Positions 17,025 through 34,662 of a stretch of 34,662 bases of DNA are shown here, in pieces (the stretch's first letter is position 1; the number at the start of each line of letters is the position of its first letter). This stretch comes from an uncultured Verrucomicrobiota bacterium. Its GTDB lineage: Bacteria; Verrucomicrobiota; Verrucomicrobiia; Limisphaerales; UBA9464. The stretch covers positions 1 to 34,662 of the forward strand of contig CAIPFS010000696.1 in the NCBI GenBank assembly GCA_903864375.1, written 5' to 3'. The translations under genes and the position numbers were made by a program. The notes under the pieces are model-generated. The model did no database searches. It was given only the letters and a program-made list of their open reading frames with translations, and was not told the DNA's origin.

Positions 17025-18125
17025 CTACTGGCTCAGCGGATTGCTGACCCCGACGCCACCAAAGCTGCTATCCACGGCGTGGCCGCCTTCATTGGCCGCG
17101 ACCGTACGGACAAAGGTGTCGGTGATCAATTTTGCATACCGTTCAAGCGTCCGGAAGGGGCTGCGGGGAACATAGACGATATCTCCTGCCTGCAGACTCA
17201 CGTCTTTCTGGCGGCCCAGATAGATGGCCTGAAAGTTGACCAATCCGATCCGGGGCTCGGAGAGCGACCCGCGCACAATGGCCACCTGACTGACATAGGC
17301 ATCCGGCGTGGTTCCCAGGGCTTTGGCAATGGCGGTGGTCAGGGTCATGTGATCGACATACCCCAACGGACGAGGGCCCCGGACCGCTCCGAGAACATAG
17401 ATCTGAGCGGAAAGCGAGGAAGGCAGGTAGATGAAGTCGTCCGGCTCGAGATAGATGTTCTGCGTCGTATCACCCTGTCGCAACAACCGTTGAAAATTGA
17501 CGGGCAGCATCTCGCCGCTGCGAATTAAGAAACTGTGATTGAGATCAGCCAACTCCTCCGTGGTTCCCGTGAAGCGCGAAGTGAAGAGTCCGCCGGCCCT
17601 GGAAATGGCCTCGATCACCGTCATGGGTGCGTCCAGCGGAAAGACGCCCGATTTGTTAAGCCGCCCCATGACCCAGACCCTTTTGCTTTCAGCCCGTGTC
17701 AATTGCAGCGATAACTGAGGGTGCTGGTAGTATTGGGTCAGCTCTTTTTCCAGCTTCAATCGGGCTTCCTCGAGGGTCAGCGCCCAGACATCCATTCCAG
17801 GAAGTAGATCGAAATAGATTTTTCCATCGGCACAGACAAAAGTCGTCGTCCGCGTGCCTGTACGCCCGAGGATTTCCAGTTCAATACGGTCGCCGGGGCC
17901 CAGACGGTAGGGCTCGGTGGACGGTCGGAGCCATTCCGGACGTATCTGATTCGAGCTCACCACGCTGGTCAGATTGGTGGCGGGAGCTCCCACGGGGGCC
18001 GGGGTGGTTGCCCGGGGGTCAAATTTCTTGGCCACCAGAACCGATTCCGGCGCACAACCCGCCCAAAAAATTGCCATGGCCACCAGCAGGGGAGGGATGG
18101 GGATTCGGAAAAAGTTCCTGTTCAT
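17025..18125 (-). CDS. Polysaccharide export outer-membrane lipoprotein (Wza/OPX family), paralogue 2
   Basis: Lipobox-like FWAG-C, YRLGPGD...DGKIYFDLL Poly_export domain, SLBB domains (VWVMGRLNKSG, IYVLGAVRGP) and a C-terminal amphipathic helix. Confidence 0.88.
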   Translation of the reverse strand: MNRNFFRIPIPPLLVAMAIFWAGCAPESVLVAKKFDPRATTPAPVGAPATNLTSVVSSNQIRPEWLRPSTEPYRLGPGDRIELEILGRTGTRTTTFVCADGKIYFDLLPGMDVWALTLEEARLKLEKELTQYYQHPQLSLQLTRAESKRVWVMGRLNKSGVFPLDAPMTVIEAISRAGGLFTSRFTGTTEELADLNHSFLIRSGEMLPVNFQRLLRQGDTTQNIYLEPDDFIYLPSSLSAQIYVLGAVRGPRPLGYVDHMTLTTAIAKALGTTPDAYVSQVAIVRGSLSEPRIGLVNFQAIYLGRQKDVSLQAGDIVYVPRSPFRTLERYAKLITDTFVRTVAANEGGHAVDSSFGGVGVSNPLSQ

Positions 18126-18126
18126 G

Positions 18127-19176
18127 TCACTTGATTCCAGGGACCACCGGGCTGGTGATCAGGGGTCCGATGTTTTTGCCGGTCCAGGTGGTCACGACCG
18201 TCTGGATGAATGAAGTGACCGCAAGGTCGGCGAGGTCCTCCACCCGAATCCACGGACGGTTGGACACGTATACCAGGTCGCGGGGCAGCAGCCGGAAGTC
18301 GGAACCCTTGCCGGCGAGGATGTCCTTGGTATCGACGATGAAACGCTCGGGATTCTCGAGGCTGCCCCGGACAACCAGCACCCGCTGGCGGAAGGCGTTT
18401 TCAGTGAAGCCACCGGCCAGCGTGATGGAGCCGAGGACACTGGCGTCAATGGAGAGCCCCTGGGCGCCGGGCGATCCCACGGCACCCAGCACGTAGATCT
18501 CATTATTCACCGAGGACGGAAAATAAAGGTAGTCGTCGGGTTCGATCAGGATGTTCTGGCTCAAATCCCCACGGCGAAACAGCTTGTCGAGGTCAATGGG
18601 AACCCGCTGATGATTCCGGATCAGAAAGCTGCGGGGCAGATCCGCCAGCTCCACTGTGTTGAGCTGAAAAATGCCTGTTTCAAGTCCACCCGCCTGAGCC
18701 ACGGCCTCGATGACGGTCATGGGACGCTCCAGTGTAAATGCTCCCTTATTAATCACCTTGCCAAGAATATAGAATTTTTTGCTCCTCAATTCCCCGGGGG
18801 TCACGATGACGCGGGGGCGGATGTAGTACCTGGACAGTTCAGAGGCGACGGCCTCCCGAAGCTCGTCGATGGTCTTCCCGGCGGCCATCACCCCAAGGGC
18901 CTGGAGGTAATTCACGCGTCCGTCAGGGGCGATGACGACATTGGGGCGGGCCAGTTCGGGATGTCCGTAAAAGGAGAATCCGATGACGTCGTTGGGTCCC
19001 AGGGTGTAGTGCTCCTGCCAGGCGGCCTTGATTCTGGAATTGCTGCCCGAAAACACCAGCGGAGCCGACGGCTTCGGCGCGGTGGGAATGATGGCTTCGT
19101 CGGCGCGGGCGATGACGAGCGCCAGACAGACGGCAAGGAAGATCCGACACCCGGGGAAGCGGGAGGAAGAGCTCAT
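18127..19176 (-). CDS. Polysaccharide export protein (Wza/OPX family), paralogue 1
   Basis: YTLGPND...PDGRVNYL..AAGKTIDELR Poly_export domain and SLBB domains (FYILGKVINKG, IYVLGAVGSPG). ATG 19176 overlaps the upstream stop (ATGA). Confidence 0.88.
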   Translation of the reverse strand: MSSSSRFPGCRIFLAVCLALVIARADEAIIPTAPKPSAPLVFSGSNSRIKAAWQEHYTLGPNDVIGFSFYGHPELARPNVVIAPDGRVNYLQALGVMAAGKTIDELREAVASELSRYYIRPRVIVTPGELRSKKFYILGKVINKGAFTLERPMTVIEAVAQAGGLETGIFQLNTVELADLPRSFLIRNHQRVPIDLDKLFRRGDLSQNILIEPDDYLYFPSSVNNEIYVLGAVGSPGAQGLSIDASVLGSITLAGGFTENAFRQRVLVVRGSLENPERFIVDTKDILAGKGSDFRLLPRDLVYVSNRPWIRVEDLADLAVTSFIQTVVTTWTGKNIGPLITSPVVPGIK

Positions 19177-21194
19177 GACCACGGGAAGAGTTTTGCCTCC
19201 TGATTCAACAGAGCCCCGGCCAGCGGGCAACGGGCATTTTGCAGGATCACCAGGCGTTCACGGACATCGCGTCCGCGAGTCTGATTGCCCCGGGCGAGCC
19301 AGAGCAACTGGGGAACCGTTTCCGCCCACATCAGGGTATCCGGCTGATCGGTTCCGGCGATTTCGAGGAGGACCACCACACCGGTGGCCTGATTCCAGCG
19401 CCCGATCACCTCCTGCCATTGCTGCCGGTGCGCCGCCGTCCATTCCCAGGCGGGTGGCAGCAGCAACCAGACGGTCTGCCCAATGACCGGACCGGCTTCA
19501 TCCGGCCGGCTCAATGCCTGTTCGATGGGAATCACCCGCCCGTTGCGGGGTGCCCGATTGGTGACCACCAACACCGACGGATGGCGTTGGCCGGCCGCGG
19601 CGGCCAGGAGCTCCATCCAGGTGGAGGCTCCCTCCCGGCGCGCAGAGGTGACGAAACCGCAGATCACGTTGCCATTGGGGGTGGCCACGAGTTTGCTTTG
19701 AAGGGCCAGCCAGGTCCGGAAGGCCCAATGCGACTGGGCAACGGCATCCAGGCTTTCGAGGTCGGGAAGGCGCGCCAGAAGGGGCAGTTTGGTGACGCGC
19801 TTCAAATCGGCCGCGGTCTTGATCCGGTCATCCAACAATTCCACGACGCAGATGCCCAACAGGGTTCCCATGACACCCAGAATGCCTCCGACCACCGCCA
19901 GGAGGATGACCTTTTTGGAGCGCCCGGACACCTCGACGTCTTCGACATTGGCGTCGAAGTAGCGGTAGTATCCCGGGGAGTTTTCCTCGTAGAGCTGGGC
20001 TTCACGCTGGCGGCTGGCCAGAAGGGAACGGGAGCCTTCCAGGGATTGCTGACGGGCCTTGATCCGCACGAGCTGCATTGCCTTTTCGGGCAGTCCGCGC
20101 AATTTCTCGTCCACCTCGGTCCGGGTCGCCTTCATCTTTTCAATCTGGGCGGCGACGACCTGCTTGTGGGTTCGCAGGGTGAGCAGTTCGGAGTAATATC
20201 CGGTGGACAAGCCACCTTCTCCCTGACGAGGGGGAGCAATGGGGTTGGTGGCGGACTCCTGGGCCCGTTTCTCCAACTCGGCCAGGAGAGCCTGCTGCTC
20301 CTGAATGATCGGGTTGAGTTCGGTGTATTCCTGGCGGAGGTCCGACAGTCGTTCGCGAGCCACCTGCAACTTTTCTTGAACCGGGCTGTGGGTGGTCAGT
20401 TCCCGTTCGAGCGCGGCCATCTGAAGGTCGATGGTTTCGTACTCGATTTTCATGGTCGAAAACCGGAGGTCCAGGTCGCCAAGGGTGCGCAGGTAGGCAT
20501 CCATCTCCTTGTCAGCGTTGATCAGGCCGGCCTGTTTGGAAAATTCCAGTTCTTCCTGATTGGCCGCCCGGAGGTCCTCCTCGGTCTTGCTCAACTGTCG
20601 CTTGAGCAGGCGGTTCATTTCCACCGCCTCCTGCGTCTGCATTTCCTTGATCAACTTCACGACGGTGTTGCCAAAAATGTTCAGAACCCGCACTGCGGCG
20701 CCGGCGCTGCGTCCTGACACGTAGGTCACGGTGATCAGATCCGTGTTGCGTTCCGGCGTCACCGTCATATTACCGATGATGGCTCGCGAGGACAGCTGGG
20801 CCTCCTCGGCCACCCGCTGCATGACCACAGGCGATTTAACCAGACTGACCAGGGTCTGGACGGTCATCTGCCGGGGTTTGAACGGTTCTCCCAATTCGGA
20901 GGCGCGAAAAGTGGCGGACGACTCCTGGCGGATGAGTTGCGCCGTGGCCTTGTAGGAGGCTGTGAATTTCTTGTACCCCAGTGCCCCGGCAAGGAGGGCG
21001 AGAACAGCTCCCGCCACCCCCATCATCCACCATCGGCGAAGGAGGGCAGCGATCAGGCGGAGGGGATCGAGCGGCATGCCGGATCCGCCAGACGGAGGCT
21101 GGGGCGGCGGCCCGGACGGCACCACACCACCGGAGGCAGTCGGGATGGTTTCCAGACTGTTGGGCGGCAGGTCAGTTTCAGGTCGGGTGGTCAC
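19173..21194 (-). CDS. Wzc/GumC-like polysaccharide co-polymerase with degenerate kinase domain
   Basis: Wzz-type N-terminus (LLRRWW-TM-YKATAQLI), long coiled-coil, second TM, ELLDDRIKTAADL...LPLLARLP linker, then a P-loop-like remnant VTSARREGAST. GTG start. Confidence 0.85.
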   Translation of the reverse strand: MTTRPETDLPPNSLETIPTASGGVVPSGPPPQPPSGGSGMPLDPLRLIAALLRRWWMMGVAGAVLALLAGALGYKKFTASYKATAQLIRQESSATFRASELGEPFKPRQMTVQTLVSLVKSPVVMQRVAEEAQLSSRAIIGNMTVTPERNTDLITVTYVSGRSAGAAVRVLNIFGNTVVKLIKEMQTQEAVEMNRLLKRQLSKTEEDLRAANQEELEFSKQAGLINADKEMDAYLRTLGDLDLRFSTMKIEYETIDLQMAALERELTTHSPVQEKLQVARERLSDLRQEYTELNPIIQEQQALLAELEKRAQESATNPIAPPRQGEGGLSTGYYSELLTLRTHKQVVAAQIEKMKATRTEVDEKLRGLPEKAMQLVRIKARQQSLEGSRSLLASRQREAQLYEENSPGYYRYFDANVEDVEVSGRSKKVILLAVVGGILGVMGTLLGICVVELLDDRIKTAADLKRVTKLPLLARLPDLESLDAVAQSHWAFRTWLALQSKLVATPNGNVICGFVTSARREGASTWMELLAAAAGQRHPSVLVVTNRAPRNGRVIPIEQALSRPDEAGPVIGQTVWLLLPPAWEWTAAHRQQWQEVIGRWNQATGVVVLLEIAGTDQPDTLMWAETVPQLLWLARGNQTRGRDVRERLVILQNARCPLAGALLNQEAKLFPWS

Positions 21195-21226: not shown

Positions 21227-22381
21227 TCAGGAACTTGCAGCCCGACGGGCAATCGCTTCCCGGTACACGGCAAGAACTTGGGACGCATTGCGCTGCCAGT
21301 CAAAGCCTGCGGCATGAACCAGGCCCAACCGGGTCAACTCTTTCCGGCGGGCGCCGTCGGAAGCCATCCGGCTCAGGCCCTGAGTCATGCTATCGACATT
21401 TTCAGGGTCGAGAACCTCGGCCGCGTTGCCAATCACCTCGGCGAGAGCACCGCGGGTGGAGCTGAGCACCGGGCATCCGCAGGCCATGGCTTCCACCGGA
21501 GGAAATCCAAATCCCTCGAACAACGACGGATAAACCATCGTTCCCGCGGCTTGATAGAGGGCGGGAAGCGCGTCATCGGGAACAAAACCCAAAAAGCGGA
21601 TGTCCCGGCTGAACGGTGATTGCGCCGCAGCGGTGCGGATCAATTCCGCACCGGGCCAATCTCCGCCACCGATGGCCAGCAACCACGGAGAGGCCGTCTG
21701 GCTCTTGAATCGATTGAAAGCATCAAACAAGCGGACGTGATTCTTCGCCGGATGCTCCAGGCGGGACACGTACAGGAAGTAAGGGCTGTCCAGCTTCCAG
21801 CGACGGGCCACCTCGGATTCCGCCTCGGGGCGGAGTCCGGGCCTGAATCTCTGATGATCAATGCCATTGTGGACCACGTGCTGGCGTTGAAGTGGAACTC
21901 CGAAGAAACGCTCAATGTCCCTGGCCGTGTTTTGGCTGATGGCGATGATCTCCTCCTGGCGGCGGGCCAATTGCCGGACAACCACCTTCCCGTAGAACAT
22001 CCGGGCGGGATCGTATTTACCCCGGACATGAAACGGAGCGAGGTCGTGAATGGTGGCCACCCGTGCGCAGGGGGCGCTCCAGACCATCCGACGGTAACTG
22101 GGAACATGAAGGACATCGATTTCCATCCGGCGCAGCAACCCCGGAAGGGTGGTATGATGCCAGAGGATATTACGAACAGCGCGACGATGCGTCTCGGGAA
22201 CGGTGACGATCTCCGCCCTGCCCCGGGCAAAGGCAAACAACGGCAACTCCTCCTCCAGCACCAACAGGACGATCTCATGGTCACCGGGTGCCTCCAACAG
22301 GGCGCGGACCAGGGCGAGAATGTATTGTCCAACGCCGGACTTGCCGCGTTGAAGGACCGAGGTGGAAAAGGCGATGCGCAT
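21227..22381 (-). CDS. Glycosyltransferase family 4
   Basis: SGVGQY, TIHDL, AISQNT, VVHNGID, KNHVRL and the EX7E motif SLFEGFGFPPVEAMACG. Confidence 0.92.
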   Translation of the reverse strand: MRIAFSTSVLQRGKSGVGQYILALVRALLEAPGDHEIVLLVLEEELPLFAFARGRAEIVTVPETHRRAVRNILWHHTTLPGLLRRMEIDVLHVPSYRRMVWSAPCARVATIHDLAPFHVRGKYDPARMFYGKVVVRQLARRQEEIIAISQNTARDIERFFGVPLQRQHVVHNGIDHQRFRPGLRPEAESEVARRWKLDSPYFLYVSRLEHPAKNHVRLFDAFNRFKSQTASPWLLAIGGGDWPGAELIRTAAAQSPFSRDIRFLGFVPDDALPALYQAAGTMVYPSLFEGFGFPPVEAMACGCPVLSSTRGALAEVIGNAAEVLDPENVDSMTQGLSRMASDGARRKELTRLGLVHAAGFDWQRNASQVLAVYREAIARRAASS

Positions 22382-22383
22382 GA

Positions 22384-23898
22384 TCAGCTCAGGAGCAGGT
22401 TATCGAGCCGGACAATCCGGAGGACGTTCAGCACTGCGGGTGTCGGACCAACAAAACGAACCTTCATTCCCAGTTTGACCCCGTGCTTCCGCACCTTGAG
22501 CATCAGCCGGACACCAGTGCTGTCGATGAACCGAACCCCTTCCAGCCGGACATCCACTTCCGAGGTGTGTCCATTGCGCAGTTCGAGGTAATACTGGGTC
22601 ATATTCCAAACCGCGTCGACGTTGGCCGCCACGACCTCGCCCGTCCATACCAGGGGTCCCACCCGCCCGGAAATGTCCAGATCGACACCCACAGGACGCT
22701 CACCTTCCCGTGCCCGGGTCAATTCGTGGGCCGCCGCCAGGTCGGGAGCGGTGGTGAACATTCCGTCCACCCGCATCAATTCCAAAGCCCGGACGACGGG
22801 GGCGGACGGACCGACCAGAACCAGTTGTCGTTCGTCGGCTCGAAGCTGTTTGAGCAGTCGAATCAGCAGTCCCAGTCCGGTGCTGTCGATGAACTGAATT
22901 TGGGAAAGGTCCGCCAGAACATGCCCTTCGCTGGCCCGGAGCAATCGGATCAGATCGCGATATCTTTCGACGGCCGCGGCATCCAACCGCTCGCCAAACC
23001 GGACGATTTCCGAAATGCCGTGGGTTGTTTCCCGGATTCCCGTCGATTCAGTTCCGGGCGTCGCGGCGGATCGATGTCGTAATTCCCACCATTGGGTTGC
23101 GATGGCTCGACCAAAGACGACGAGGTCGACCGCATATCTTTTGAAGAGGCGTTTCGGTTCCTGCAACAGGCGGAAGATCCATTCCAAACCGGTCTTTTGC
23201 ATCCACCGGGGTGCGCGACGGACGGTGCCACCGAGGAAATCGATGGTTGCTCCCACGCCCACGCTGACCGGCACACCCGATGCCATGAAATGCATGCGAA
23301 TCCATTTCTCCTGCTTGGGACAGCCAAACGCGACGAGGACGATGTCGGGTCGGGCGGCGCGCAGGCGCTGGAGGACATCCTCGTGGTCCATGTCCACCAG
23401 CGGCTTGAACGGTGGCGAATAGGAGCCCACCAGTTGAAGGCGCGGATACCGCAGACGGGTATTGGCGGTGGCCCGCTCCAGGCTCGCCTCCGCACCTCCG
23501 AGGAAGAAAATCCTCCATCCCCGGCGCTCGGCTTCCGCGAGCAGAAGGGGAACAAGGTCGGATCCGGTCACCCGTTCCGGAAGGGGATTGCCGAGCAGAC
23601 GGGAGGCCCAGACGAGGGGCATGCCGTCACACAACACCAGGTCCGCCTCTGCCAGAATTCGTTGCAGTTCCACGTCGCGCAGGGCCTGGACGGCAAAATC
23701 GACGTTGGCCGTCGCGAGATAGTGGGGACGCTTCGAAAGAATCATTTCACCAATGATTCGCAGCGTGTCAGACATGGTGACCTTGTCGAAGGGGACGCCC
23801 AACATGGCCACCGGTGCCGGACGGTCGCAAAGGCTGTTCCGTTCGCCGGGGGAGGCCGGTTTCGAGGTGGTGGGGGCAGATCCAGGAGCGGGCATCAT
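22384..23898 (-). CDS. WecB/TagA/CpsF (GT26) glycosyltransferase fused to two STAS (anti-sigma antagonist) domains
   Basis: GT26 motifs TANVD, DGMPLVWAS, ERVTGSDL, FFLGG, GCPKQEKW, RAPRWMQKTGLEW.FRL.QEP.RL..RY, followed by DLSQIQFIDSTGLGLL and RLEGVRFIDSTGVRLM STAS signatures. Start ATG 23898 or 23895. Confidence 0.9.
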   Translation of the reverse strand: MMPAPGSAPTTSKPASPGERNSLCDRPAPVAMLGVPFDKVTMSDTLRIIGEMILSKRPHYLATANVDFAVQALRDVELQRILAEADLVLCDGMPLVWASRLLGNPLPERVTGSDLVPLLLAEAERRGWRIFFLGGAEASLERATANTRLRYPRLQLVGSYSPPFKPLVDMDHEDVLQRLRAARPDIVLVAFGCPKQEKWIRMHFMASGVPVSVGVGATIDFLGGTVRRAPRWMQKTGLEWIFRLLQEPKRLFKRYAVDLVVFGRAIATQWWELRHRSAATPGTESTGIRETTHGISEIVRFGERLDAAAVERYRDLIRLLRASEGHVLADLSQIQFIDSTGLGLLIRLLKQLRADERQLVLVGPSAPVVRALELMRVDGMFTTAPDLAAAHELTRAREGERPVGVDLDISGRVGPLVWTGEVVAANVDAVWNMTQYYLELRNGHTSEVDVRLEGVRFIDSTGVRLMLKVRKHGVKLGMKVRFVGPTPAVLNVLRIVRLDNLLLS

Positions 23899-23902
23899 AT
23901 CG

Positions 23903-24325
23903 CTAGGGCACGGAATCGGTCGACAACCCAAACGGTCGACGAAGCCAGGAAATCGTGGAGGACACTTCGATGTTCCCCGTTCGGGTCAAATACACGGACA
24001 GCCGGTAGCTTTGCGGCTCGACATAGTCGCCGTGCCAGAATTCGACCCCGTTGGTGAACAACCGGGCCTCGCTCGCGGCACCCTTTGGTTCGAGAGAAAA
24101 ACGAACCGACTCCCCATCGGCAATGTCGTCGAAGGTTCGTTGCTGACCGCAGGCCGTCACCCGCAGGGCGGAGACGGTCCGTCCCGTTTCATTGTAAATC
24201 ATGATGCGGGTGGTCCCGGCGCGCACCCAGGCGACCCCGGCGGAAACAGCCAGCATCAAAATGGCGAGCAACGGCAGCCAGACCCGGCGCCGGCGCCACC
24301 AGTCAGGGGGCAAAACGACGCGCAT
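23903..24325 (-). CDS. Small membrane-anchored/secreted hypothetical protein
   Basis: 140-aa ORF that exactly fills the gap between two operon genes; WWRRRR followed by a hydrophobic helix and a beta-rich domain. Confidence 0.7.
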   Translation of the reverse strand: MRVVLPPDWWRRRRVWLPLLAILMLAVSAGVAWVRAGTTRIMIYNETGRTVSALRVTACGQQRTFDDIADGESVRFSLEPKGAASEARLFTNGVEFWHGDYVEPQSYRLSVYLTRTGNIEVSSTISWLRRPFGLSTDSVP

Positions 24326-26668: not shown

Positions 26669-27921
26669 GATGCCACCCGGGTTCCCCGGGCCAGGGCCAC
26701 CGTCTCCAACAGGTAGCGCTCAAACTGGTCCACAACCACCGGTTCATTGTAACGGGAGCGGACCTCGGCGTGGCCCGTCGCCGCCATTCGTGCTCGGGCC
26801 ACGGGGTCAGACGCCAGTTCAACGATGCGTTCCGCCAGCTGGGCGGCATCGCCGGCCGGGTAGGTCAGGGCGTTTTCGCCGTGCCGGAATAATTCCGGGC
26901 TGCCTCCGGTCATGGTGCCGATGACGGGCAGACCGCTGCTCATGGCTTCCAGCGGTGTCAGGGCAAACGGCTCCTCCCATTCCGAGGTGAACAGGAGGGC
27001 ATCGTGTGCACGGTAGATGCCGGGCATTTCGGACGATCGGGCGGTATGAAAATAGACCGGCAGGTGATGCTCGCGAACGTAGGTGTGCAGGCGGGTGGTG
27101 TAGTCGGCATCACCCCGGCCGTAAATGTGGAGCTCACCGGGAAATCGACCCTGGACGGCCGCCATGGCCCGGAGGGCCGTCATCACTCCCTTATCCTCCG
27201 CCAGTCGTCCCACATAGAGCAGTCGGTGAAGAATCTGTGAAGCCGGGGCGGGAGTACCGGAAAACCGTCCGATATCGACCGGACAATAAATGATGGCCCC
27301 GTGGCCCACAGAATAGCCTTTCGCAGCAGTCAAATCGCGCAGCGCCCGGCTGCAAAAAGTGATCCGATCAAACCGGATGGAGCGGACCGGATCCGCGGGT
27401 GCGACGGAACTCCATTTCCGCCGTTGACCGGTCCAACCCCAAGCTGTTCGCAACACCCGGGCCAGGAGGGACGGATGGCTGCGGTTCCACCAGTCGAGCC
27501 AGACATCTGCGGCCAGGCTTCGGGCAATCCAATGATCGGACAGATGGTAGGCCGTCGGGACAGGCAACCCCTGCAAGGTCAGGCAGATCGATTTGGAAAT
27601 GCCCCCAAGGTTCCAAACATGAACGACATCGGGTTCAAACCGGGCAACGGCCTCACGGACGCACCGGTTGTTGTGCACTTCGAGATCGGCCAGCGCCCGA
27701 ATCCCCAGCCACGGATGACCAAAAAAACCGTGAACGCGGAGGTCCCGACGTACCCCGGGCTCGGTGGCATCCTCCCGAACCCCGTCCACCCGGTGATTGG
27801 AGGTCAGAACTTCCACCGTGTGTCCACGGGCACGCCACGCCGCAACCATGGCGGCGCAGATCAATTCATATCCCCCGACATAATGCGGGGGATAGAGATT
27901 GGACAGGACCAGTATTTTCAT
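26665..27921 (-). CDS. Glycosyltransferase family 4
   Basis: MKILVLSNLYPPHYVGGYE, YVGRLAEDKG and EX7E motif WEEPFALTPLEAMSSG. ATG 27921 overlaps the upstream stop (ATGA). Confidence 0.92.
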   Translation of the reverse strand: MKILVLSNLYPPHYVGGYELICAAMVAAWRARGHTVEVLTSNHRVDGVREDATEPGVRRDLRVHGFFGHPWLGIRALADLEVHNNRCVREAVARFEPDVVHVWNLGGISKSICLTLQGLPVPTAYHLSDHWIARSLAADVWLDWWNRSHPSLLARVLRTAWGWTGQRRKWSSVAPADPVRSIRFDRITFCSRALRDLTAAKGYSVGHGAIIYCPVDIGRFSGTPAPASQILHRLLYVGRLAEDKGVMTALRAMAAVQGRFPGELHIYGRGDADYTTRLHTYVREHHLPVYFHTARSSEMPGIYRAHDALLFTSEWEEPFALTPLEAMSSGLPVIGTMTGGSPELFRHGENALTYPAGDAAQLAERIVELASDPVARARMAATGHAEVRSRYNEPVVVDQFERYLLETVALARGTRVAS

Positions 27922-28787
27922 GCGGGTGTGGATTCCTTCCAGCCCTGGCGGTAGCCGGCCAGCTTGCCAGCCCGCTGCGCCCATCGCACCCGCGCGGCAT
28001 GAGGCCATTCACCGAACCTCCGGTGGCTGGAGCAAAACCGGAAATCATGCCGGACGTCGCTCAGCCAGCCGAGAAGGACAATACGCCACCAGGAAATCCC
28101 GTCCGGATGCCGGCTCCAGGCCCGGGCGATGGCCCGGGCGTCGCCAAAGCTTCGTCGCCGGGCCTGTTCGACGGTGTAGTTATGCGAGTGCATCACCACC
28201 GATTCCGGGACATAGAGGACGTCGTAGCCCTGCGCCCGGCACCAGCGTGTATATTCATCGTCCTCGGCGTACTGCAATTCCTCCCGGAATCCACGGCGCG
28301 CCCAGGCATCCCGCCGGAGGCCGCTGCTGACCATGCTGAAAAAATGCTCCCACCGGGCGGATTCCCGGGCGGGACCAAAGCAGCGTTCATAATCACAGGC
28401 ATACACAGCCTGGCAGTCCGGACGCGGAATCTGACGTCCGAAAACCGCTGCGACCCGGGGATTGGCCAGCGGAGCCGCCAGCCGGGGAAGCCAGTCGGTC
28501 CCCTGGGGCGTCGCGTCGGCATTGAGAAAGAGGCAGACGTCGGCGCGGGCCAGCCGCATCCCATGATTCATGACCCGGCTGGGATTATATTCCGCGGGTG
28601 TGATCTGGATGAAGTGGGCCGGCTGGAACGCCCGGATGAGCTCCTGGGATCCGTCGGTGGATCCAGAGTCGATCACGATGAGCTCCCAATTCCGATACTG
28701 CTGAGCCCGCAGGGCCGGGAGCGTCCCCTTGAGGGCCCACGCCTCGTTGTACGAGCGCATGATGATGCTGACCAGCGGTTCGCTCAT
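27918..28787 (-). CDS. Glycosyltransferase family 2 (rhamnosyltransferase-like)
   Basis: VSIIMRSYNE, VIDSGSTDGS, FLNAD (DxD variant), AAVFGRQIPR, YAEDD, VMHSHNY. Confidence 0.9.
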   Translation of the reverse strand: MSEPLVSIIMRSYNEAWALKGTLPALRAQQYRNWELIVIDSGSTDGSQELIRAFQPAHFIQITPAEYNPSRVMNHGMRLARADVCLFLNADATPQGTDWLPRLAAPLANPRVAAVFGRQIPRPDCQAVYACDYERCFGPARESARWEHFFSMVSSGLRRDAWARRGFREELQYAEDDEYTRWCRAQGYDVLYVPESVVMHSHNYTVEQARRRSFGDARAIARAWSRHPDGISWWRIVLLGWLSDVRHDFRFCSSHRRFGEWPHAARVRWAQRAGKLAGYRQGWKESTPA

Positions 28788-30346
28788 GGGACGGACCTCC
28801 GACGGATCGGAAAACGACGGCCAAATTTCCGGGTCAATTCCTCCTGTTCGCCCGGTCGCAAGGCCATTCGCCAGAGTCCGAACGCACCCACCACGCCCGC
28901 CAGCGTCCCCTCAATGAACATGGCGGCCATGGTCGAGCCACCGGGTGCCAGTACGACCAGTTTCAAGGCGATCAGGACGGCCAGCATGGGGAGGCATCCC
29001 AGCCACGAGGGAATCACGGATTGCCGGAACAAGGGCCAGCCTTTGAGACCCGTGTTCTTGGCCATCCATGGCCACAAGTGGACCCATCCGAAATAGAGGG
29101 TGGGAATCAATGAACCGACCGCCACCGCCACCACGCTCCGGGTTGCCAGCACCAGGCCGACACTGAGAATGAGATTGGCGGCAGCCTCGCCGAGGCCAAG
29201 CCACATCAGTCGACGTTCATGGCCGGTCATCATGAAGATCCGCTTGGAAACGCTATGGGTCAGGATCGTGGTGTAAAACCAGGCCAGCAGCACATGTCCC
29301 ACAAGGATGGTATCCGCCGAGAGCGACTTGTCGCCGGTCAACAAACGAAGCAGCTCGGAAAGGTAAAAGGCACAGAGCAGGTAGAGCGGCGTGGCGATCA
29401 GCACGGTCCAGCGAAGGCTGTTGACCAGCAAATCCTGAAGCGCGGCCGTGTCTCCGGTGGCATGGAGATGGGCCGCTGCCGGCGAGAGGGTGTCCTGCAC
29501 CTGCTTGGTGAACTGGCTGAACACCTCGGCCACTTTTGCGCCGGCCTGATAGAGTGCCACTGCCGAAACCGAGAGAGCGGCACCGAGCACCAGCTGATCG
29601 GTTTTCCCCAACACGATGTTGGTGGCGGTGCCCAGGTAGGCAAACACCGAAAACTGCATGGTCTCCCCCATCATCGACGGTGAAAACAGCGACGGACGAA
29701 TCCGAACGCCAGGCATCCGCTGGAGGGCGAAGAGCGCCGCCAGAAAGTCGGGGGCCAATGCAAAGAACAGCGCGATGAACATCACCGCCATGAAACTCCA
29801 CTTGAACCAGACGGCGGCGGCGATGAAACCGAGCCGCAGGATCAGCGCTCCGGAAATCAGGTTGTTGGTCAGCCGGATGCGTTGCTGCCCGCGGAGCACC
29901 TCCGGGAAGATGCCCATCGGAAAGGCCAGCCCGATGCCGAGAAAAAACACCACCATGACCTTGCGGAACTCCTCATGATTGGCGGCGGAGACGCCAAACC
30001 ATCGGACGATGGTGGCCGAGCCCGCCAGGACCACCAATGCGATGGCCACGGAAATACCGGCATAGAAGACCAGGATGGTGCTCAGCACCCGGCTGAGCTT
30101 TTCCCAATCCTTCAGGACCGAAAGTTCGGCCACCCGCTTTTGGGCGGCAAAGCCGAATCCGAAATCGAGAAGGATGCCATACCCAAACACACTCCAGAGC
30201 AGCGACCAAAAGCCAAACTGCTCCTGATTCAGGGACTGATACAACATCCGGAACGTGAGCAGACCGACGGCCATGCCCAGGACGGTCCGGACATAGTTCG
30301 AAATCGAGTTGCTCCAGATGTTGCGTTTGACCTCGGCGTAGCTCAT
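28784..30346 (-). CDS. wzx: Oligosaccharide flippase (Wzx, MOP superfamily)
   Basis: About 520 aa with many TM segments; L..EQFGFW...LLDFGF and KTDQLVLGAALSVSAVALYQ motifs. ATG 30346 overlaps the upstream stop (ATGA). Confidence 0.85.
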   Translation of the reverse strand: MSYAEVKRNIWSNSISNYVRTVLGMAVGLLTFRMLYQSLNQEQFGFWSLLWSVFGYGILLDFGFGFAAQKRVAELSVLKDWEKLSRVLSTILVFYAGISVAIALVVLAGSATIVRWFGVSAANHEEFRKVMVVFFLGIGLAFPMGIFPEVLRGQQRIRLTNNLISGALILRLGFIAAAVWFKWSFMAVMFIALFFALAPDFLAALFALQRMPGVRIRPSLFSPSMMGETMQFSVFAYLGTATNIVLGKTDQLVLGAALSVSAVALYQAGAKVAEVFSQFTKQVQDTLSPAAAHLHATGDTAALQDLLVNSLRWTVLIATPLYLLCAFYLSELLRLLTGDKSLSADTILVGHVLLAWFYTTILTHSVSKRIFMMTGHERRLMWLGLGEAAANLILSVGLVLATRSVVAVAVGSLIPTLYFGWVHLWPWMAKNTGLKGWPLFRQSVIPSWLGCLPMLAVLIALKLVVLAPGGSTMAAMFIEGTLAGVVGAFGLWRMALRPGEQEELTRKFGRRFPIRRRSVP

Positions 30347-31629
30347 GGGGCCGTCCTCCCGAAACGCGTTGCCGCATGACGCTCTGCCGCCCGATAGAGC
30401 CCTTCCAATTGAACCGCCACGCGGCTCCAGTCGTAGCGTCCCCGGGCCTCCTCCCGCCCGGCTTCGCCCAACCGGCGGCGCAGACCGGAATCGCCAGCGA
30501 GAAGCAGCAGACGTTGGGTAAGGTCGGCGGCGGTCCCCTCCTCCCCGGGGCGGATGAAAAGGCCGTTTTCCCCGTCGTGAATCAGCGCCCGGAGGCCACC
30601 CACATGATTTGCGACCACCGCCCGACCGGCACTCCACGCCTCCAGCACCACGATGCCGAACGGCTCATGGCGGGACGGCAGCACAAAGACGTCGCAGGCG
30701 TGATAGGCCTCCACGAGCTGGGGATCGTCGTTGCGCAGCCCCGGCAGCAATCGAACGGAACCGGAAAGCTGTCGTTCGGCCACCAGAGCCCGGAGACGTG
30801 CAGCGTAGTCCGGCTGGGTCTCCGGTCCGATCAGGACCAGAAAGGCATCGGGCTGATGACGGATGAATTCAGAAAATGCCTCCAGCAGAAGCAGTTGATT
30901 TTTTTGGGGATCAATCCGGCTGAGGTTCAGAACCACGAATCCGTTCGCGGGGATTCCATGACGGCGACGGAATGCGGCACCGTCCCCGGTGGCGAAACGG
31001 GCCGAATCCACCCCATTCGGCAGGTAGGCAATGCGATCGTGTTTCAACTGCCCCCGGGCCTTCTCGAGTTCACCCGCCCCCACGCAGATCACTTGATCGG
31101 CATCGTCCAGAATACGTCGGGATCCGAAGAGGGCCCCGAAAACCTTGCCCCACTCCGGCTTGTTGGCGATGGGGCGGAGCATCTGTTCCCGTTCGGCCTC
31201 AGGAACATCAAACACGCCGCCATGGAGGGTCACGACAAACGGTTTCCGACGGAGACGGGCGGCGGTTCGAACCTCTCCACCCAGCCGCTTGAGGGCGTGG
31301 GCATGGAACAGCCGCACGTTGGGGCGGGATAAGAGCCCACAGAAGAGGGAGAGGGAAAGCAGGTTGCCCCCTTTTTTGTCCATGGCGGCCCGGTCCTCGC
31401 GGCTCAACCCCAAAAAAGGATAACAGTAGGGATACCGGTGGACCGGCACTCCCCCCAATTCCTCATGCCTCTGACTGGCCAGGGCCATGGAGGTCATGAT
31501 TTCCGGAGCGGCACCCGCGCGTTGTTGCTGACGCGAGATCTCGAGAATCACGGTTTCCGTGCCTCCCCATTCCGCGGCGACAAACCGGCGGGGAACATGA
31601 ACGATCCGTTGTTTCTCCGACGGGTTCAC
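30343..31629 (-). CDS. Glycosyltransferase family 4
   Basis: WGGTET, TLHGG, LPNGVD, SRIDPQKNQ and EX7E motif RHEPFGIVVLEAWSAG. GTG start overlapping the upstream stop. Confidence 0.92.
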   Translation of the reverse strand: MNPSEKQRIVHVPRRFVAAEWGGTETVILEISRQQQRAGAAPEIMTSMALASQRHEELGGVPVHRYPYCYPFLGLSREDRAAMDKKGGNLLSLSLFCGLLSRPNVRLFHAHALKRLGGEVRTAARLRRKPFVVTLHGGVFDVPEAEREQMLRPIANKPEWGKVFGALFGSRRILDDADQVICVGAGELEKARGQLKHDRIAYLPNGVDSARFATGDGAAFRRRHGIPANGFVVLNLSRIDPQKNQLLLLEAFSEFIRHQPDAFLVLIGPETQPDYAARLRALVAERQLSGSVRLLPGLRNDDPQLVEAYHACDVFVLPSRHEPFGIVVLEAWSAGRAVVANHVGGLRALIHDGENGLFIRPGEEGTAADLTQRLLLLAGDSGLRRRLGEAGREEARGRYDWSRVAVQLEGLYRAAERHAATRFGRTAP

Positions 31630-32384
31630 GAGCGCAGAAAGAGGAAGGTGCCCCCTTCCTCCCGTTCAACGTGAAATCCGAGATTCAACAAATCCCCGAC
31701 AATCCGGTAGGTGGCCGCATGCCCGATGAAACCAGGGTGCAATTCAACGATGATCTTGCGAACGGAGGCGGGAAGCTGGCGGAAATCGACATATTGTTCG
31801 GCCCCTTCAATGTCCATGATGAAAGCCGTGGGGGAATAATCCATCCGGGACACGAGGGTGGTCAGGGACACTCCCGGGACCTGAACCGAGCGCCCGCCGG
31901 AACCGGCGACCAGCGAGTTTTCCCAAAATTCGTTGCCGATATTCAAGGTCACCATCCCGTCCGATGCCGCCAGTGCCAGATTCAAGACGTTCGGAGTGCG
32001 TCCGTTGATTTCGTAGTTGCGCTTGAGGCGCTCCACGGTTCCCGGATTGGCCTCCACCGTCGTGTAGCGGGTGATGCCAACGCGAATCTGGCAGAACAGA
32101 CCGATGAACCCGATGGCACCTCCCACCTCCAGGACCGTGTCCTCCGGGCGCAGGAACTGTTGTGCCAGCAGACGTTCCTGCACTTCATAACGCCCCAGCA
32201 GAAGATTATTCTTCATCACGGAGGACAATCCTTTGACCTCCAATTGCACCCCCTCCAGGGTGACACGCTCCACCTTGGGCAGGGAGAACTTAAACCGCCA
32301 GCGGGTGCGAAAATCCTGCCAGAGCTGATACAGGAGCGTTCGCTCGATCAGGCTGGGGCGTGTCGACGAAGGGGTGGAACTCAT
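31626..32384 (-). CDS. FkbM-family SAM-dependent methyltransferase
   Basis: VLEVGGAIG (motif I), TVEANP, FIMDIEGAE and IIVELH are FkbM/Methyltransf_21 motifs. Confidence 0.88.
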   Translation of the reverse strand: MSSTPSSTRPSLIERTLLYQLWQDFRTRWRFKFSLPKVERVTLEGVQLEVKGLSSVMKNNLLLGRYEVQERLLAQQFLRPEDTVLEVGGAIGFIGLFCQIRVGITRYTTVEANPGTVERLKRNYEINGRTPNVLNLALAASDGMVTLNIGNEFWENSLVAGSGGRSVQVPGVSLTTLVSRMDYSPTAFIMDIEGAEQYVDFRQLPASVRKIIVELHPGFIGHAATYRIVGDLLNLGFHVEREEGGTFLFLRS

Positions 32385-33598
32385 GGAAGGTTGGGCGTTG
32401 CCCCGGTCCGGTTGCGATCCCGGGCGAGCAGGGCGGTCTCTTTCATCAAATCACAGAGGTGGGGAATGGCAGTCAGACTGTCGGGAAATTCACGCTGATT
32501 GGTCAGGACGGTGGCGTACGAATGCCTGTCTGTCGGATGATAGCCGTGCATGGCGCGGATGGGGCGCTCGCCCATGTGGCTCGGAACGATAAGAACGCCC
32601 TCCTTCACCAGGAAGATCAACTCCCCGAAATAGCGATCCTCAAAGCGCGTGTGCATCGCCTCCAGTTCGTTGTCGGGCAGAATCCGGCCCTCAGGCACCT
32701 GCTGTAGCGTGGCCTCGATCAACTGCCGGGCCCGATCATTGAAAAACCAGAACCGGGCCATGGTGGAATCGTACACCGCGGCGTAGTCCTTTTGAAATTT
32801 CAACGGCAGGGCATCGATCCGGGCCATCAAATCGAGGTGGATGTCGCAGTTGGCCATCCCGTGATCGCTGAAAACGTACAGGCGAATGTCGTCGTACCGG
32901 CTTTGGGCGGCCTGGATGAGTTGTTGCAGCCACTGTTCATACACCCGGAGGCGGGCGGGAATTTCCGGTGAATCATTGCCCACGCGGTGCAACAGGCCAT
33001 CCAGACCCGCCCAGTAAAGAAACGCAAAGTCAATGGAACCATCCCGCAACCGGGCGGCGAGGGCGTCGCGATTGGCCTCCTCGGACTGGGCTGGATCACT
33101 GACAAAGTACGGAATCTGCTGTGCCACCAGGAAATCAAAGATATTCTCACCCCGGTTCATTCCCCCGGGTCGCAGCGGGCTCTTTTTCTCAGTGAAGTCG
33201 TACCGATGGATGTGCTGGAACGGAATGTTATAAAGATCAAAATAACCCTGAAACTGAAGACGCGCCTTGAAGATCCGTGTGAGCACCCGGCGGACGATGC
33301 GTCGCCCCGTCAGAGCCCGGGGAAGCCAGCGGAGCCACCGGAGGGAGCGGAACGGCGAGTTTTTCGGGTCATGGACAAAATAACACCAGTTGCGATGCTG
33401 AACCGGCCATCGCCCGGATAGAATCGACGGCACACAGGTCGAGCTGTAGCCAAAGACGCTGTCCAATCGTCGCCGGAGGGGGACGAATCCGTTTCCAAAG
33501 GGATCATTCCGGAGGATTTCCCATCCCATGGCGTCAATCATGACGAAGAGCGCCAGCACGGGCTTCCGGGGTGCGCTCCCGGGCTGTTCGGAATTCAT
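32381..33598 (-). CDS. Alkaline-phosphatase-superfamily protein (type I phosphodiesterase/nucleotide pyrophosphatase-like)
   Basis: Metal-ligand motifs VMIDAMG, GYSSTCVPSILSG (nucleophile region), LDGLLH, FSDHGM and MHGY. No signal peptide evident. Confidence 0.85.
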   Translation of the reverse strand: MNSEQPGSAPRKPVLALFVMIDAMGWEILRNDPFGNGFVPLRRRLDSVFGYSSTCVPSILSGRWPVQHRNWCYFVHDPKNSPFRSLRWLRWLPRALTGRRIVRRVLTRIFKARLQFQGYFDLYNIPFQHIHRYDFTEKKSPLRPGGMNRGENIFDFLVAQQIPYFVSDPAQSEEANRDALAARLRDGSIDFAFLYWAGLDGLLHRVGNDSPEIPARLRVYEQWLQQLIQAAQSRYDDIRLYVFSDHGMANCDIHLDLMARIDALPLKFQKDYAAVYDSTMARFWFFNDRARQLIEATLQQVPEGRILPDNELEAMHTRFEDRYFGELIFLVKEGVLIVPSHMGERPIRAMHGYHPTDRHSYATVLTNQREFPDSLTAIPHLCDLMKETALLARDRNRTGATPNLP

Positions 33599-33987
33599 GG
33601 CGTGGAAGGAGGTGTTGCCAGGGTGGAGATCAGGCGACGGGCTTCGGCCGCCAGGGAACTGGGACTGAACGGCTTGGTCAGGTAGAGCGCCGCCCCGGAG
33701 CCCTGGGCTTCCGTGCGGGTGATGGTCTGACCGCGGGTGGTCAGCATGATGATGGGGATGGCGGAGGTCGAGGGAGTCGCCTTCAGATGCCGGAGGGCGG
33801 TGATTCCGTCCATTTCCGGCATGGTGACATCCATGACGATCAGGGCCGGGAGTTCCCGGCTGGCCAGCTCAATGGCCTCACGACCACTCCGGGCCGTCAG
33901 GATTTGATACCCATCCTTCTTCAGGCTCAGTTCGGTGAGTCGCAACATGTGCGGCTCGTCATCCACGATGAGAACTTTGCGGCTCAT
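33595..33987 (-). CDS. Single-domain response regulator (receiver only)
   Basis: VLIVDDE, phospho-acceptor in IVMDVTMPEMDG, MLT and YLTKPFSP; 130 aa with no output domain. Confidence 0.92.
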   Translation of the reverse strand: MSRKVLIVDDEPHMLRLTELSLKKDGYQILTARSGREAIELASRELPALIVMDVTMPEMDGITALRHLKATPSTSAIPIIMLTTRGQTITRTEAQGSGAALYLTKPFSPSSLAAEARRLISTLATPPSTP

Positions 33988-33988
33988 G

Positions 33989-34662
33989 TTAATAAAGCAG
34001 GTTCCCGGCAAGAACCAGCAGGGCGGTATCATCGGCCGGTTCTCCGGAGTTTTCGAATTCACCCAGCAGCTCCACGATTTTACGACGGGTCACATCGATG
34101 GGCTCGGCACTCACGACGGCGTTGCGCAGCAGGGCCTTGATGGGCTCGAGGCCCAGAAGGTCGCCGTCCCGGTTGCGGGCCTCAATGAGTCCGTCGGTGA
34201 ACAACAGGGCACGGCCCCCACGGTAGGAACGCGTCTCTTCGGAGGGCTCGGAGTCCTCCACAATACCGAGAGGGGGGCCGCCGGCCCGTACCTCGCACAC
34301 CTCCCCATGGGCGTCCGCCAGGAGCATCGGGGGATGACCGGCACCGGAAACCCGGATTTCACCCCGTTCCACGTCAATGTAGGCCAGTTGGGCGGTGATG
34401 AACATTTCGGCCGCGTCCAACTCACTGAACAGATTCTGGTTCAGCCACGCCAGGAATCGCCCCGGGTGAGGGGCGAGGTCGCGTCGGGATCGCACCAGGC
34501 TCCGGAACATGAGGGCAAACAGTGCCGCCGGAAGCCCTTTGCCCATCACGTCGCTCATCACCAACAGCAGATTGCCGTTATCCGTGACGAGGGCATCGTA
34601 GTAATCGCCGCCAATCTGTCGGGCACTGCGGCAAAACCCGGCAAGCGATGCACCGGGAAGCA
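33989..34662 (-). CDS. SpoIIE/RsbU-type PP2C serine phosphatase, 3' part; gene begins outside the window
   Basis: Frame is open to the window edge: SARQIGGDYYD...SDVMGKGLPAAL, MFITA, GAGHPP, FTDGLIEA and ADDT are the PP2C-SIG metal-binding motifs. Confidence 0.92.
   Translation of the reverse strand, partial: LPGASLAGFCRSARQIGGDYYDALVTDNGNLLLVMSDVMGKGLPAALFALMFRSLVRSRRDLAPHPGRFLAWLNQNLFSELDAAEMFITAQLAYIDVERGEIRVSGAGHPPMLLADAHGEVCEVRAGGPPLGIVEDSEPSEETRSYRGGRALLFTDGLIEARNRDGDLLGLEPIKALLRNAVVSAEPIDVTRRKIVELLGEFENSGEPADDTALLVLAGNLLY

Follow-up and report, generated by a model that had tools for sequence, protein, structure and literature searches.

What does a partner-switching phosphatase control when it is encoded in a polysaccharide operon with no sigma factor among its products? 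This question is raised by contig CAIPFS010000696.1 (C696) of GenBank assembly GCA_903864375.1, a 76%-complete metagenome-assembled genome (MAG) of an uncultured Verrucomicrobiota bacterium in 731 contigs. The window that we analyzed is this whole contig, or 34,662 nucleotides. Within one operon, it encodes a SpoIIE-type (PP2C) phosphatase domain, a response-regulator receiver, and a glycosyltransferase of family GT26 (WecG/TagA/CpsF) that is fused to two STAS domains. From a comparison of sequences and gene neighborhoods across the phylum, we lean, with modest confidence, toward one answer: the switch in the operon may gate the GT26 enzyme itself via STAS phosphorylation, and the fused STAS domains would be the substrates.

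A polysaccharide operon with partner-switching genes

In the open reading frame (ORF) listing of the window, the minus strand has 16 co-oriented genes between 34660 and 17025. Eight of the junctions, given our choice of start codons, are 4-bp overlaps of start and stop codons (seven ATGA and one GTGA). These are the junctions between the receiver gene and an alkaline-phosphatase-superfamily (AP-family) gene, AP-family/methyltransferase, methyltransferase/GT4, GT4/flippase, flippase/GT2, GT2/GT4, GT4/p386 (p386 is a conserved protein without a named family), and Wzz/Wza. The remaining junctions are gaps of 1, 2, 7, 2, 32, and 1 nt and one overlap of 23 nt; the widest gap, 32 nt, separates the last GT4 gene (GT4d) from the Wzz-like gene. 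The initial annotation of the window, which was made from its letters alone, had described 16 co-oriented genes with eight 4-bp overlaps and no gap above 32 nt, and this was borne out in every countable detail. It had also described the phosphatase and the receiver as coupled directly to the glycan genes. The receiver starts 1 nt past the PP2C stop codon, and the 4-bp overlap then ties it to the AP-family gene. The locus is a Wzx/Wza-type exopolysaccharide or capsule operon.

Because the window is a whole contig, the PP2C gene is truncated at the contig's end. What remains (33989..34660, minus strand) encodes the SpoIIE/PP2C domain (Pfam SpoIIE, 7e-42), which is the C-terminal 223 amino acids of a switch protein of about 606 amino acids. 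A full-length relative of 606 amino acids is encoded at L109:10416-12236 in a closely related genome (G001), whose GT26 fusion is 89% identical to the window's. According to Pfam, this relative combines a kinase domain (HATPase_c_2, 2.2e-20) with GAF and SpoIIE domains. The N-terminal 378 amino acids of the window's switch protein are encoded on another contig of its own genome G000 (positions 3169-4284 of C557), with 84% identity to residues 1-378 of the L109 protein. When both contigs are mapped on L109, C557 stops at switch residue 378 and the window starts near residue 384, which leaves about 11 nt between the contigs. Judging by this fit, C557:1-4286 is the direct upstream continuation of the window's operon.

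The genes of C557 encode, in order, a partial GT4 glycosyltransferase, a PRK/uridine-kinase-like protein, an initiating sugar-phosphate transferase (Bac_transf), a hexapeptide acetyltransferase, a free STAS protein, and the N-terminus of the kinase-GAF-PP2C protein. Moving outward from the switch gene in G001, we found a free STAS of 111 amino acids, a hexapeptide acetyltransferase, Bac_transf, a PRK-like kinase, and GT4. The Bac_transf protein of the locus has 262 amino acids; Bac_transf is its sole Pfam match, and it lacks STAS. With the C557 genes added to those of the window, the operon has at least 22 genes.

The free STAS gene (111 amino acids) lies directly before the switch gene (C557 2830-3162; L109 12240-12575), and the serine of its D-S-x-G motif is present in all of the unique sequences (35/35). 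The ATP-binding N and G boxes of the kinase (29 sequences) and the metal-binding Asp motifs of the PP2C domain (37 sequences) are conserved as well. On the other side of the switch gene is the single-domain response-regulator receiver (33595..33987, minus strand; Pfam Response_reg, 1.8e-27), which has 130 amino acids from the ATG at 33987; its ORF could be extended to a GTG at 34062. In most of the related loci, too, a small receiver (REC) gene comes next after the gene for the switch protein. By eye, the receiver keeps what we take to be the acidic pocket, Thr, and Lys of a functional receiver. Given the upstream genes on C557 and L109, the switch comprises a SypE-like bifunctional kinase-GAF-phosphatase, a separate receiver, and a SypA-like free STAS.

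The operon carries a complete set of partner-switching parts, with no sigma factor among its products. In Pfam searches, no sigma-factor domain was found among the 16 window and 6 upstream gene products (the searches did not extend to unlinked sigma factors). The initial annotation had stated that the only STAS domains in view are fused to a glycosyltransferase. This holds inside the window, where the STAS profile matches only the GT26 fusion (C696 22729-23025 and 22393-22569), but it fails beyond the window, as C557 encodes the free STAS. The annotation had also pointed upstream for an RsbW-type kinase, free STAS proteins, and a sigma factor. The kinase is there, fused with GAF to the window's PP2C domain, and so is the free STAS, but the sigma factor is not.

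Other genes of these families are present elsewhere in the genome. Contig C417 encodes a small STAS and an RsbW-like kinase as a pair, and contig C524 encodes another free STAS. With a hidden Markov model (HMM), we found only three SpoIIE-type phosphatase domains in the whole assembly. Also, in some related loci the switch gene is preceded by a tandem pair of free STAS genes (L041 7104-7734, L044 5725-6354, and L110 13010-13872).

A GT26 enzyme with two STAS domains

The fusion protein has 503 amino acids (22384..23895, minus strand). It matches PF03808 (2.1e-66; 223.3 bits against a cut-off of 27.4) and TIGR00696 (160 bits against 69), and it matches STAS in two stretches (3.4e-25). As to the donor sugar, the best NCBIfam match is EpsA-type and falls below the cut-off. 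On the minus strand, the GT26 core lies at 23134-23646, and the two STAS domains lie C-terminal to it: STAS1 at 22729-23025 and STAS2 at about 22387-22692. Each has a D-S-T-G motif, whose serine is Ser338 in STAS1 (codon 22882-22884) and Ser459 in STAS2 (codon 22519-22521).

The GT26 part aligns to residues 5-223 of the full-length TagA of Thermoanaerobacter (7mpk; E 2.5e-58). In TagA from T. italicus, according to its description, residues T37, D65, R214, and R221 are catalytic or are supplied by the C-terminal appendage (PMC6493773). The same text describes an exchange between inactive dimers in the cytoplasm and active monomers on the membrane, with the appendage completing the active site in the monomers (PMC6493773). 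These four residues correspond to T62, D90, R242, and R249 in the alignment of the fusion proteins (39 sequences), where T62 is nearly invariant and the others are invariant.

In the AlphaFold2 (AF2) model of the fusion (predicted local distance difference test [pLDDT] 87, predicted template modeling score [pTM] 0.85), the appendage continues as a long helix (residues 247-273), which is followed by a short low-confidence linker and then by STAS1 and STAS2. In a search of the PDB, STAS1 matches SpoIIAA, TM1442, and RsbV (E 1e-13 to 3e-6). The acceptor serine is present in 92 of 96 STAS1 domains. At the corresponding position of STAS2, 89 of 96 have serine and 5 more have threonine, for 94/96 Ser/Thr. 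In fusions with a single STAS domain, 13 of 16 unique sequences have the serine. A prediction of the complex of the GT26-STAS-STAS protein of G001 with its free STAS gave no call (both scores were 0.00, with the mark set at 0.32, in a run without controls) and so weighs neither for nor against an interaction.

The fusion and the switch across the Verrucomicrobiota

The best 120 database relatives of the fusion all carry PF03808 and both STAS models, and the names of their sources point to Verrucomicrobiota. We found 144 genome-contig stretches that encode a relative and kept 80 loci (set A), which we scored with local HMMs built from the proteins of the locus. Set A includes the cultured bacteria Prosthecobacter fluviatilis (KACC 12649, locus L049), Luteolibacter pohnpeiensis (KCTC 22041, locus L082), and Thalassobacterium maritimum. 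Almost all of these loci (78/80) encode a fusion, either with two STAS domains (69 loci) or with one (9 loci). Where at least 9 kb of sequence was available upstream of a fused gene, we found a kinase or PP2C ORF in 27 of 47 loci, a small REC gene in 26/47, and a free STAS in 17/47. No switch part was found in 19 of the 47, but two of these (L019 and L024) carry the module 10-13 kb upstream, past the flank. Also, in the genome with locus L020, a different short contig encodes a PP2C that is 84% identical.

Gene-by-gene tblastn comparisons indicate that the whole locus is kept, but rearranged, across the phylum. The kept set consists of Bac_transf, the acetyltransferase, the free STAS, the switch protein, the receiver, the AP-family protein, the flippase, GT4 and GT2 glycosyltransferases, p386, the GT26-STAS fusion, the Wzz-like protein, and two Wza proteins. 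The Prosthecobacter locus is co-linear with the window's, while the loci of Luteolibacter and of MAGs labeled as Akkermansiaceae are divided into divergent operons. In L041 and L044, the genes for Bac_transf, STAS, STAS, kinase-GAF-PP2C, REC, and GT26-STAS are contiguous. The sequences themselves show the gene content and the domain architecture of the operon, the conservation of its catalytic and acceptor residues, and a linkage that is kept, but rearranged, across the phylum.

A second switch architecture, Hpt-REC-SpoIIE-HATPase_c_2, which is independent of the first, abuts or neighbors the fusion gene in two genomes (L131 568-4652 and L130 1422-3584). In L131, this switch gene overlaps the stop of a gene for a GT26-STAS-STAS protein of 689 amino acids by 4 bp. 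Hybrid-kinase-like REC genes adjoin the switch gene in L118 and L097.

To sample the phylum evenly, we drew 401 genomes and fetched 36 places (set B), each with flanks of 16 kb on the upstream side and about 2.5 kb on the downstream side. Places were chosen if the match extended beyond the GT26 domain or ranked high, and 34 of the 36 encode a fusion. Sets A and B have just one identical protein in common (L083, which is the same as L135). As a control, we used 20 places from the same sample that encode an unfused GT26. Among these, none has a kinase or PP2C ORF (0/20) or a small REC gene (0/20), and one has a free STAS (1/20). In set B, a small receiver is found in 3 of the 34 fused loci, and any switch part in 13/34, compared to 1/20 of the unfused controls (Fisher p = 0.009). 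The initial annotation had expected GT26-STAS fusions to co-occur with partner-switching genes. They do so in 27/47 loci of set A, versus 0/20 for unfused GT26 with kinase or PP2C, but the co-occurrence depends on the clade, as described below for set B.

In loci of the Opitutales type (L135, L136, L138, and L140), the fusion has a single STAS domain, a free STAS is found about 2.3 kb upstream, and there is no switch gene within 16 kb. On the other side, four of these genomes have a PP2C-type gene of 574-580 amino acids at a distance of 24-31 kb, and in G293 the distance is 14 kb. Finally, GT26-STAS loci of the Verrucomicrobia type also turned up in MAGs that are labeled as Bifidobacteriaceae, Saccharimonadales, Cyanophyceae, a Methanomassiliicoccaceae archaeon, and Zhongshania (L022, L033, L038, L068, and L098). 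These oddly labeled loci probably reflect contamination during binning rather than transfer.

Comparison to known systems

The closest precedent is from Anabaena sp. PCC 7120 (Harada, Matsuoka, and Ehira, June 2026). According to that paper, Alr3423 phosphorylates All4160, and the REC-SpoIIE phosphatase HenR activates All4160 (PMC13555669). All4160 has a STAS domain at its N-terminus along with a Bac_transf domain; the fused STAS is itself the substrate, and its phosphorylation is inhibitory (PMC13555669). In their view, the strategy is specific to the cyanobacterial lineage (PMC13555669). Our locus resembles the Anabaena system in having a STAS domain with an acceptor serine fused to a polysaccharide transferase of an early lipid-linked step, in probably having an enzyme rather than a sigma factor as the output, and in combining a SpoIIE-type phosphatase linked to a receiver with an RsbW-type serine kinase. 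There are also differences. All4160 has a single N-terminal STAS on an initiating transferase (Bac_transf), while our protein has two C-terminal STAS domains on a second-step GT26. The three Anabaena genes are unlinked, while ours form one verrucomicrobial operon. And in our system a single polypeptide carries kinase, GAF, and phosphatase, a gene of its own encodes the receiver, and there is an additional free STAS.

The syp locus of Vibrio fischeri is also an exopolysaccharide locus with a single-domain STAS (SypA) and a bifunctional protein (SypE) with an RsbW-like kinase at its N-terminus and PP2C at its C-terminus; the likeness of SypE to our switch protein is one of domain architecture. 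Control of the syp system is post-transcriptional, with input from a phosphorelay through a receiver, which would be another likeness. SypE is kinase-REC-PP2C, whereas our switch protein has GAF in the center and the receiver is the next gene. To our knowledge, the syp locus has no GT26 and no STAS-fused enzyme. According to the Vibrio papers, SypA acts downstream of SypE, some vibrios carry SypA without SypE, and the target of SypA is described as unknown (PMC4517449, PMC10120452).

The canonical partner switches, RsbU/RsbV/RsbW and SpoIIE/SpoIIAA/SpoIIAB, use the same three protein families and the same acceptor serine in the D-S-x-G motif of STAS. In contrast, our locus has no sigma factor, its kinase is fused to the phosphatase, and there are three candidate STAS partners, of which one is free and two are borne by the enzyme. 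The GT26 enzymes TagA and WecG share with our fusion the fold family, the catalytic Thr and Asp, and the arginines of the appendage, and their substrate is the lipid-linked product that the initiating transferase makes. The known enzymes end past the appendage and are regulated by a membrane-induced change from dimer to monomer, while in our protein the STAS tandem follows (PMC6493773).

In a literature search that covered few subscription journals and excluded supplements, neither GT26-STAS fusions nor a comparable switch from Verrucomicrobia turned up in any paper. On STAS domains and glycosyltransferases, it yielded the Anabaena paper with its preprint, a paper on SypA, and a STAS review or unrelated papers. 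The principle is known from Anabaena. Our locus joins traits of the Anabaena and syp systems and is set apart by its GT26 second-step enzyme, its tandem C-terminal STAS domains, its GAF domain and separate receiver, its module in one operon, and its phylum.

What does the switch control?

The locus is a real and well-conserved system, with a precedent elsewhere that was shown by experiment. As for its own mechanism, the pairing of kinase and substrate, whether phosphate turns the output on or off, and how this reaches the appendage are our inference. In the reading that we favor, a partner-switching-like module for serine phosphorylation would stand in place of a sigma-factor output. Signals would enter through the GAF domain and through the receiver, which would be phosphorylated by an unlinked histidine kinase, and would set the balance of kinase and phosphatase activity. 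The kinase would write, and PP2C would erase, the phosphate on the serine of the D-S-x-G motif. The likeliest targets would be Ser338 and Ser459 of the GT26-fused STAS domains, along with the free STAS. If SypA (PMC10120452, PMC4517449) and All4160 (PMC13555669) are a guide, the unphosphorylated state would be the ON state. The STAS tandem might then pass its phosphorylation state, or its partner state, to the neighboring appendage, which is catalytic and binds the membrane. Because the tandem lies directly behind the appendage that GT26 enzymes of the TagA type require for membrane binding and catalysis, its state would gate the transfer. In other words, the second lipid-linked step in the synthesis of the repeat unit would be gated by the state of the STAS domains.

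Several observations weigh against this reading. The presence of a free STAS means that the substrate may lie outside the fusion. In the PDB search, STAS2 gave weak matches to the STAS domains of transporters. In set B, a kinase or PP2C ORF is found in just 5 of the 34 fused loci, so the enzyme fusion often occurs without an adjacent switch; by this feature alone, the comparison to unfused GT26 gives 5/34 versus 0/20 (Fisher p = 0.14). A free STAS is found in just 11/34. Among the 29 set B genomes without a kinase or PP2C neighbor, 19 have a match to the full switch protein at E <= 1e-25, and in five of the 29 (G368, G299, G101, G314, and G293) the best match shares the contig with the GT26 gene, at 14-31 kb from it on the opposite side; the other 10/29 have no match at this threshold. 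The genomes are related and our HMMs are narrower than Pfam's, so the counts for sets A and B are incomplete, non-independent, and indicative only. By these counts, the linkage is strong in some clades and looser or absent in others, and its universality is unproven. Finally, both phosphorylation at this locus and the choice of the fused or the free STAS as its target are read from sequence.

In an arrangement closer to that of SypA, the free STAS would be the sole substrate of the kinase and the phosphatase, and the fused STAS domains would be docking partners that are not phosphorylated. The unphosphorylated free STAS would then bind its target, possibly the GT26 fusion (by a STAS-STAS contact), or would possibly free the fusion from the kinase domain. 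We consider this account possible but doubtful. The free STAS gene lies directly before the switch gene, it keeps D-S-x-G in 35/35 unique sequences, and in set B it is a more persistent neighbor of the fusion than the kinase or PP2C is (11/34 versus 5/34). Loci of the Opitutales type have the order free STAS, p386, GT4, GT26-STAS, without a switch gene within 16 kb upstream. The Vibrio work also fits, as SypA acts downstream of SypE in V. fischeri and occurs without SypE in some other vibrios. On the other hand, the fused STAS domains keep the acceptor about as strictly (92/96 for STAS1; 94/96 Ser/Thr for STAS2), which is not obviously needed for pure docking, and in Anabaena the fused STAS is itself the substrate (PMC13555669). 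The locus might instead be a true partner switch with an enzyme as its output, in which the fused tandem and the free STAS compete for one kinase/phosphatase and the transfer step replaces the sigma factor; we think this unlikely.

It is more unlikely still, in our view, that the target of the switch is a different one (a sigma factor that is not linked to the locus, some other enzyme encoded in the operon, or export, for instance), with the STAS tandem being an autonomous module for ligand binding, oligomerization, or membrane targeting that has no more than the fold in common with switch partners. STAS domains do occur in contexts without phosphorylation (SulP transporters and MlaB-type proteins are among the weaker matches), many fused loci lack adjacent switch genes, and there are further STAS and RsbW-like genes elsewhere in the genome (on C417 and C524). 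But the operon has no sigma factor, switch parts are enriched near fused and not near unfused GT26 (13/34 versus 1/20 for any part), two unrelated switch architectures abut the fusion, and the acceptor serine is conserved. Large glycan loci do sometimes carry regulatory genes along, and the neighborhood could be an accident of operon packing without functional meaning. This seems highly improbable, as the gene set survives rearrangements in separate lineages (Prosthecobacter, Luteolibacter, Coraliomargarita, and MAGs of the Limisphaerales) and eight 4-bp overlaps couple the genes translationally.

We therefore return to the gating of the GT26 enzyme through its STAS domains. That an early glycosyl transfer is gated post-translationally had been proposed in the initial annotation. 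The parts, their linkage, and the Anabaena precedent (PMC13555669) favor this idea, with the fused STAS domains as somewhat likelier substrates than the free STAS.

If the GT26 enzyme is controlled in this way, what would it mean? STAS control of polysaccharide synthesis had been represented by one genetic model, SypA/SypE, whose target is described as unknown, and by one recent demonstration with an enzyme (All4160 from Anabaena, in 2026). That STAS domains have also been fused, independently, to another early transferase, and in a different phylum, suggests that the principle is general. Here the kinase, the phosphatase, the receiver, and the free STAS are in one operon, which is conserved from MAGs of the Limisphaerales to cultured Prosthecobacter and Luteolibacter. 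The locus is a compact and genetically tractable system for studying STAS control of an enzyme. And if the fusion is a Rosetta stone, then the target of the free STAS proteins in exopolysaccharide loci, such as SypA in Vibrio, would be a transferase of the first lipid-linked steps.

A Wzc-like co-polymerase without a Walker A motif

The operon also encodes a polysaccharide co-polymerase of the Wzz/Wzc type (19173..21194, minus strand; 673 amino acids; Pfam Wzz), with a degenerate C-terminal domain that resembles a bacterial tyrosine kinase (BY-kinase). It aligns to Wzc from E. coli (9xgv) over residues 41-460, which is the periplasmic and transmembrane part alone. A profile built from the last 218 residues of 13 sequences weakly matches Etk (3cio; E 0.0074) and CapA/B, VpsO, and Wzc (E 0.02-0.8). 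The weak matches to Etk, CapB, VpsO, and Wzc all cover the same C-terminal half.

Across 31 homologous C-terminal domains, none has a Walker A motif (GxxxxGK[ST]; 0/31) and none has a C-terminal tyrosine cluster (the final 30 residues include 0-2 tyrosines). The label "kinase-dead Wzc" is therefore apt, in agreement with the initial annotation, to which the Wzc/Wzb tyrosine cycle had appeared disabled. As in group-1-type capsule systems with the Wzc/Wzb cycle, a Wzc-like co-polymerase with a cytoplasmic C-terminal domain is encoded beside Wza-like exporters. Unlike in those systems, the co-polymerase lacks the Walker A lysine and the tyrosine cluster, and the locus has no gene for a Wzb-type phosphatase. 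The initial annotation had suggested that the switch replaces the Wzc/Wzb tyrosine cycle of other capsule systems. The locus hints that a serine switch may take that place here, but this is an idea, and what the sequences show is the degenerate state of the kinase-like domain.

Other genes of the operon

The gene after the receiver encodes an AP-family protein of 405 amino acids that resembles ENPP phosphodiesterases (32381..33598, minus strand; Pfam Phosphodiest, 1.7e-16), with weak PDB matches to ENPP5/6/7. In related loci, this gene always adjoins the REC gene. For instance, the pair, which spans 32381-33987 in the window and overlaps by 4 bp, is also adjacent in L082 (2167-3647), L049 (955-2543), and L057 (3283-4859). 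This lasting adjacency in several named lineages hints that the AP-family enzyme might be part of the signaling module instead of glycan chemistry. We also considered the pair as a split PorX-like (REC-PglZ) regulator and dropped this, as Pfam gave Phosphodiest and not PglZ.

All of the following genes are on the minus strand as well. An FkbM-family methyltransferase of 252 amino acids (31626..32384; NCBIfam TIGR01444, 5.2e-13, above the cut-off) is followed by a GT4 glycosyltransferase of 428 amino acids (30343..31629; Pfam Glycos_transf_1, 1.2e-33). Next come a Wzx-like flippase (28784..30346), which has 520 amino acids from the ATG at 30346, where there is an ATGA overlap (Pfam MatE/Polysacc_synt_3; NCBIfam WZX_like falls below the cut-off), a GT2 glycosyltransferase of 289 amino acids (27918..28787; Pfam Glycos_transf_2, 2.7e-22), and another GT4 (26665..27921), with 418 amino acids from the ATG at 27921 (Pfam Glyco_trans_1_4, 1.3e-26).

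The gene for p386, a conserved protein of 386 amino acids, is at 25508..26668. We found no match for it in Pfam, in NCBIfam, or (using phmmer) among PDB sequences. It has an AF2 model with pLDDT 92.5 and an Atlas lead of 0.88, and the best Foldseek matches are to ANT(4')/kanamycin and AadA nucleotidyltransferases (E ~1e-3, TMq 0.34). These weak fold matches suggest that p386 may be similar to nucleotidyltransferases of the Pol-beta type, specifically the aminoglycoside/MNT type. There are 50 ORFs in related loci that are homologous to p386, and in many lineages its gene has the free STAS gene on one side and the pair of GT4 and GT26-STAS genes on the other.

The next gene encodes a GT4 of 400 amino acids (24303..25505; Pfam Glyco_trans_1_4, 1.2e-24), which in most related loci is immediately 5' of the GT26-STAS gene. 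In the window, a small protein of 140 amino acids with a hydrophobic N-terminal stretch (23903..24325) comes between them; it has no match in Pfam or NCBIfam, and its homologs are confined to nearer relatives. Past the GT26-STAS gene are another GT4 of 384 amino acids (21227..22381; Pfam Glycos_transf_1, 1.5e-30), the co-polymerase, and two Wza-like outer-membrane export proteins (18127..19176 and 17025..18125; both Pfam Poly_export and SLBB).

Among the 22 genes (17025-34660 of the window and C557), we recognized no Wzy-type polymerase or membrane protein of the O-antigen-ligase family, so the polymerase may be encoded elsewhere or may be too divergent for detection.

The end of the operon and the rest of the window

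Directly past the last gene, a terminator-like hairpin with a T-rich tail (17005..17020, minus strand) is a possible end of the operon. A scan of 16000-34662 found 4 promoters, versus 4.0 in shuffled sequences, and 18 terminators, versus 17.1. As the terminator counts are at the level of the shuffles, the hairpin is merely plausible as the operon's end.

Two long ORFs are found just downstream, at 11472-13502 (676 amino acids) and 13850-15865 (671 amino acids), both on the minus strand and both without a family in Pfam or NCBIfam. We rejected the idea that these two are paralogs that belong to the system, as they are mutually unrelated and have no family. The rest of the window (1-10649 and 16142-16936) contains ordinary genes, which encode a dicarboxylate symporter, a DUF6159 protein, a tricorn-like S41 protease, GH26, a 3-keto-disaccharide hydrolase, a pseudouridine synthase, a UDG-family protein, an alpha/beta hydrolase, and deoC.

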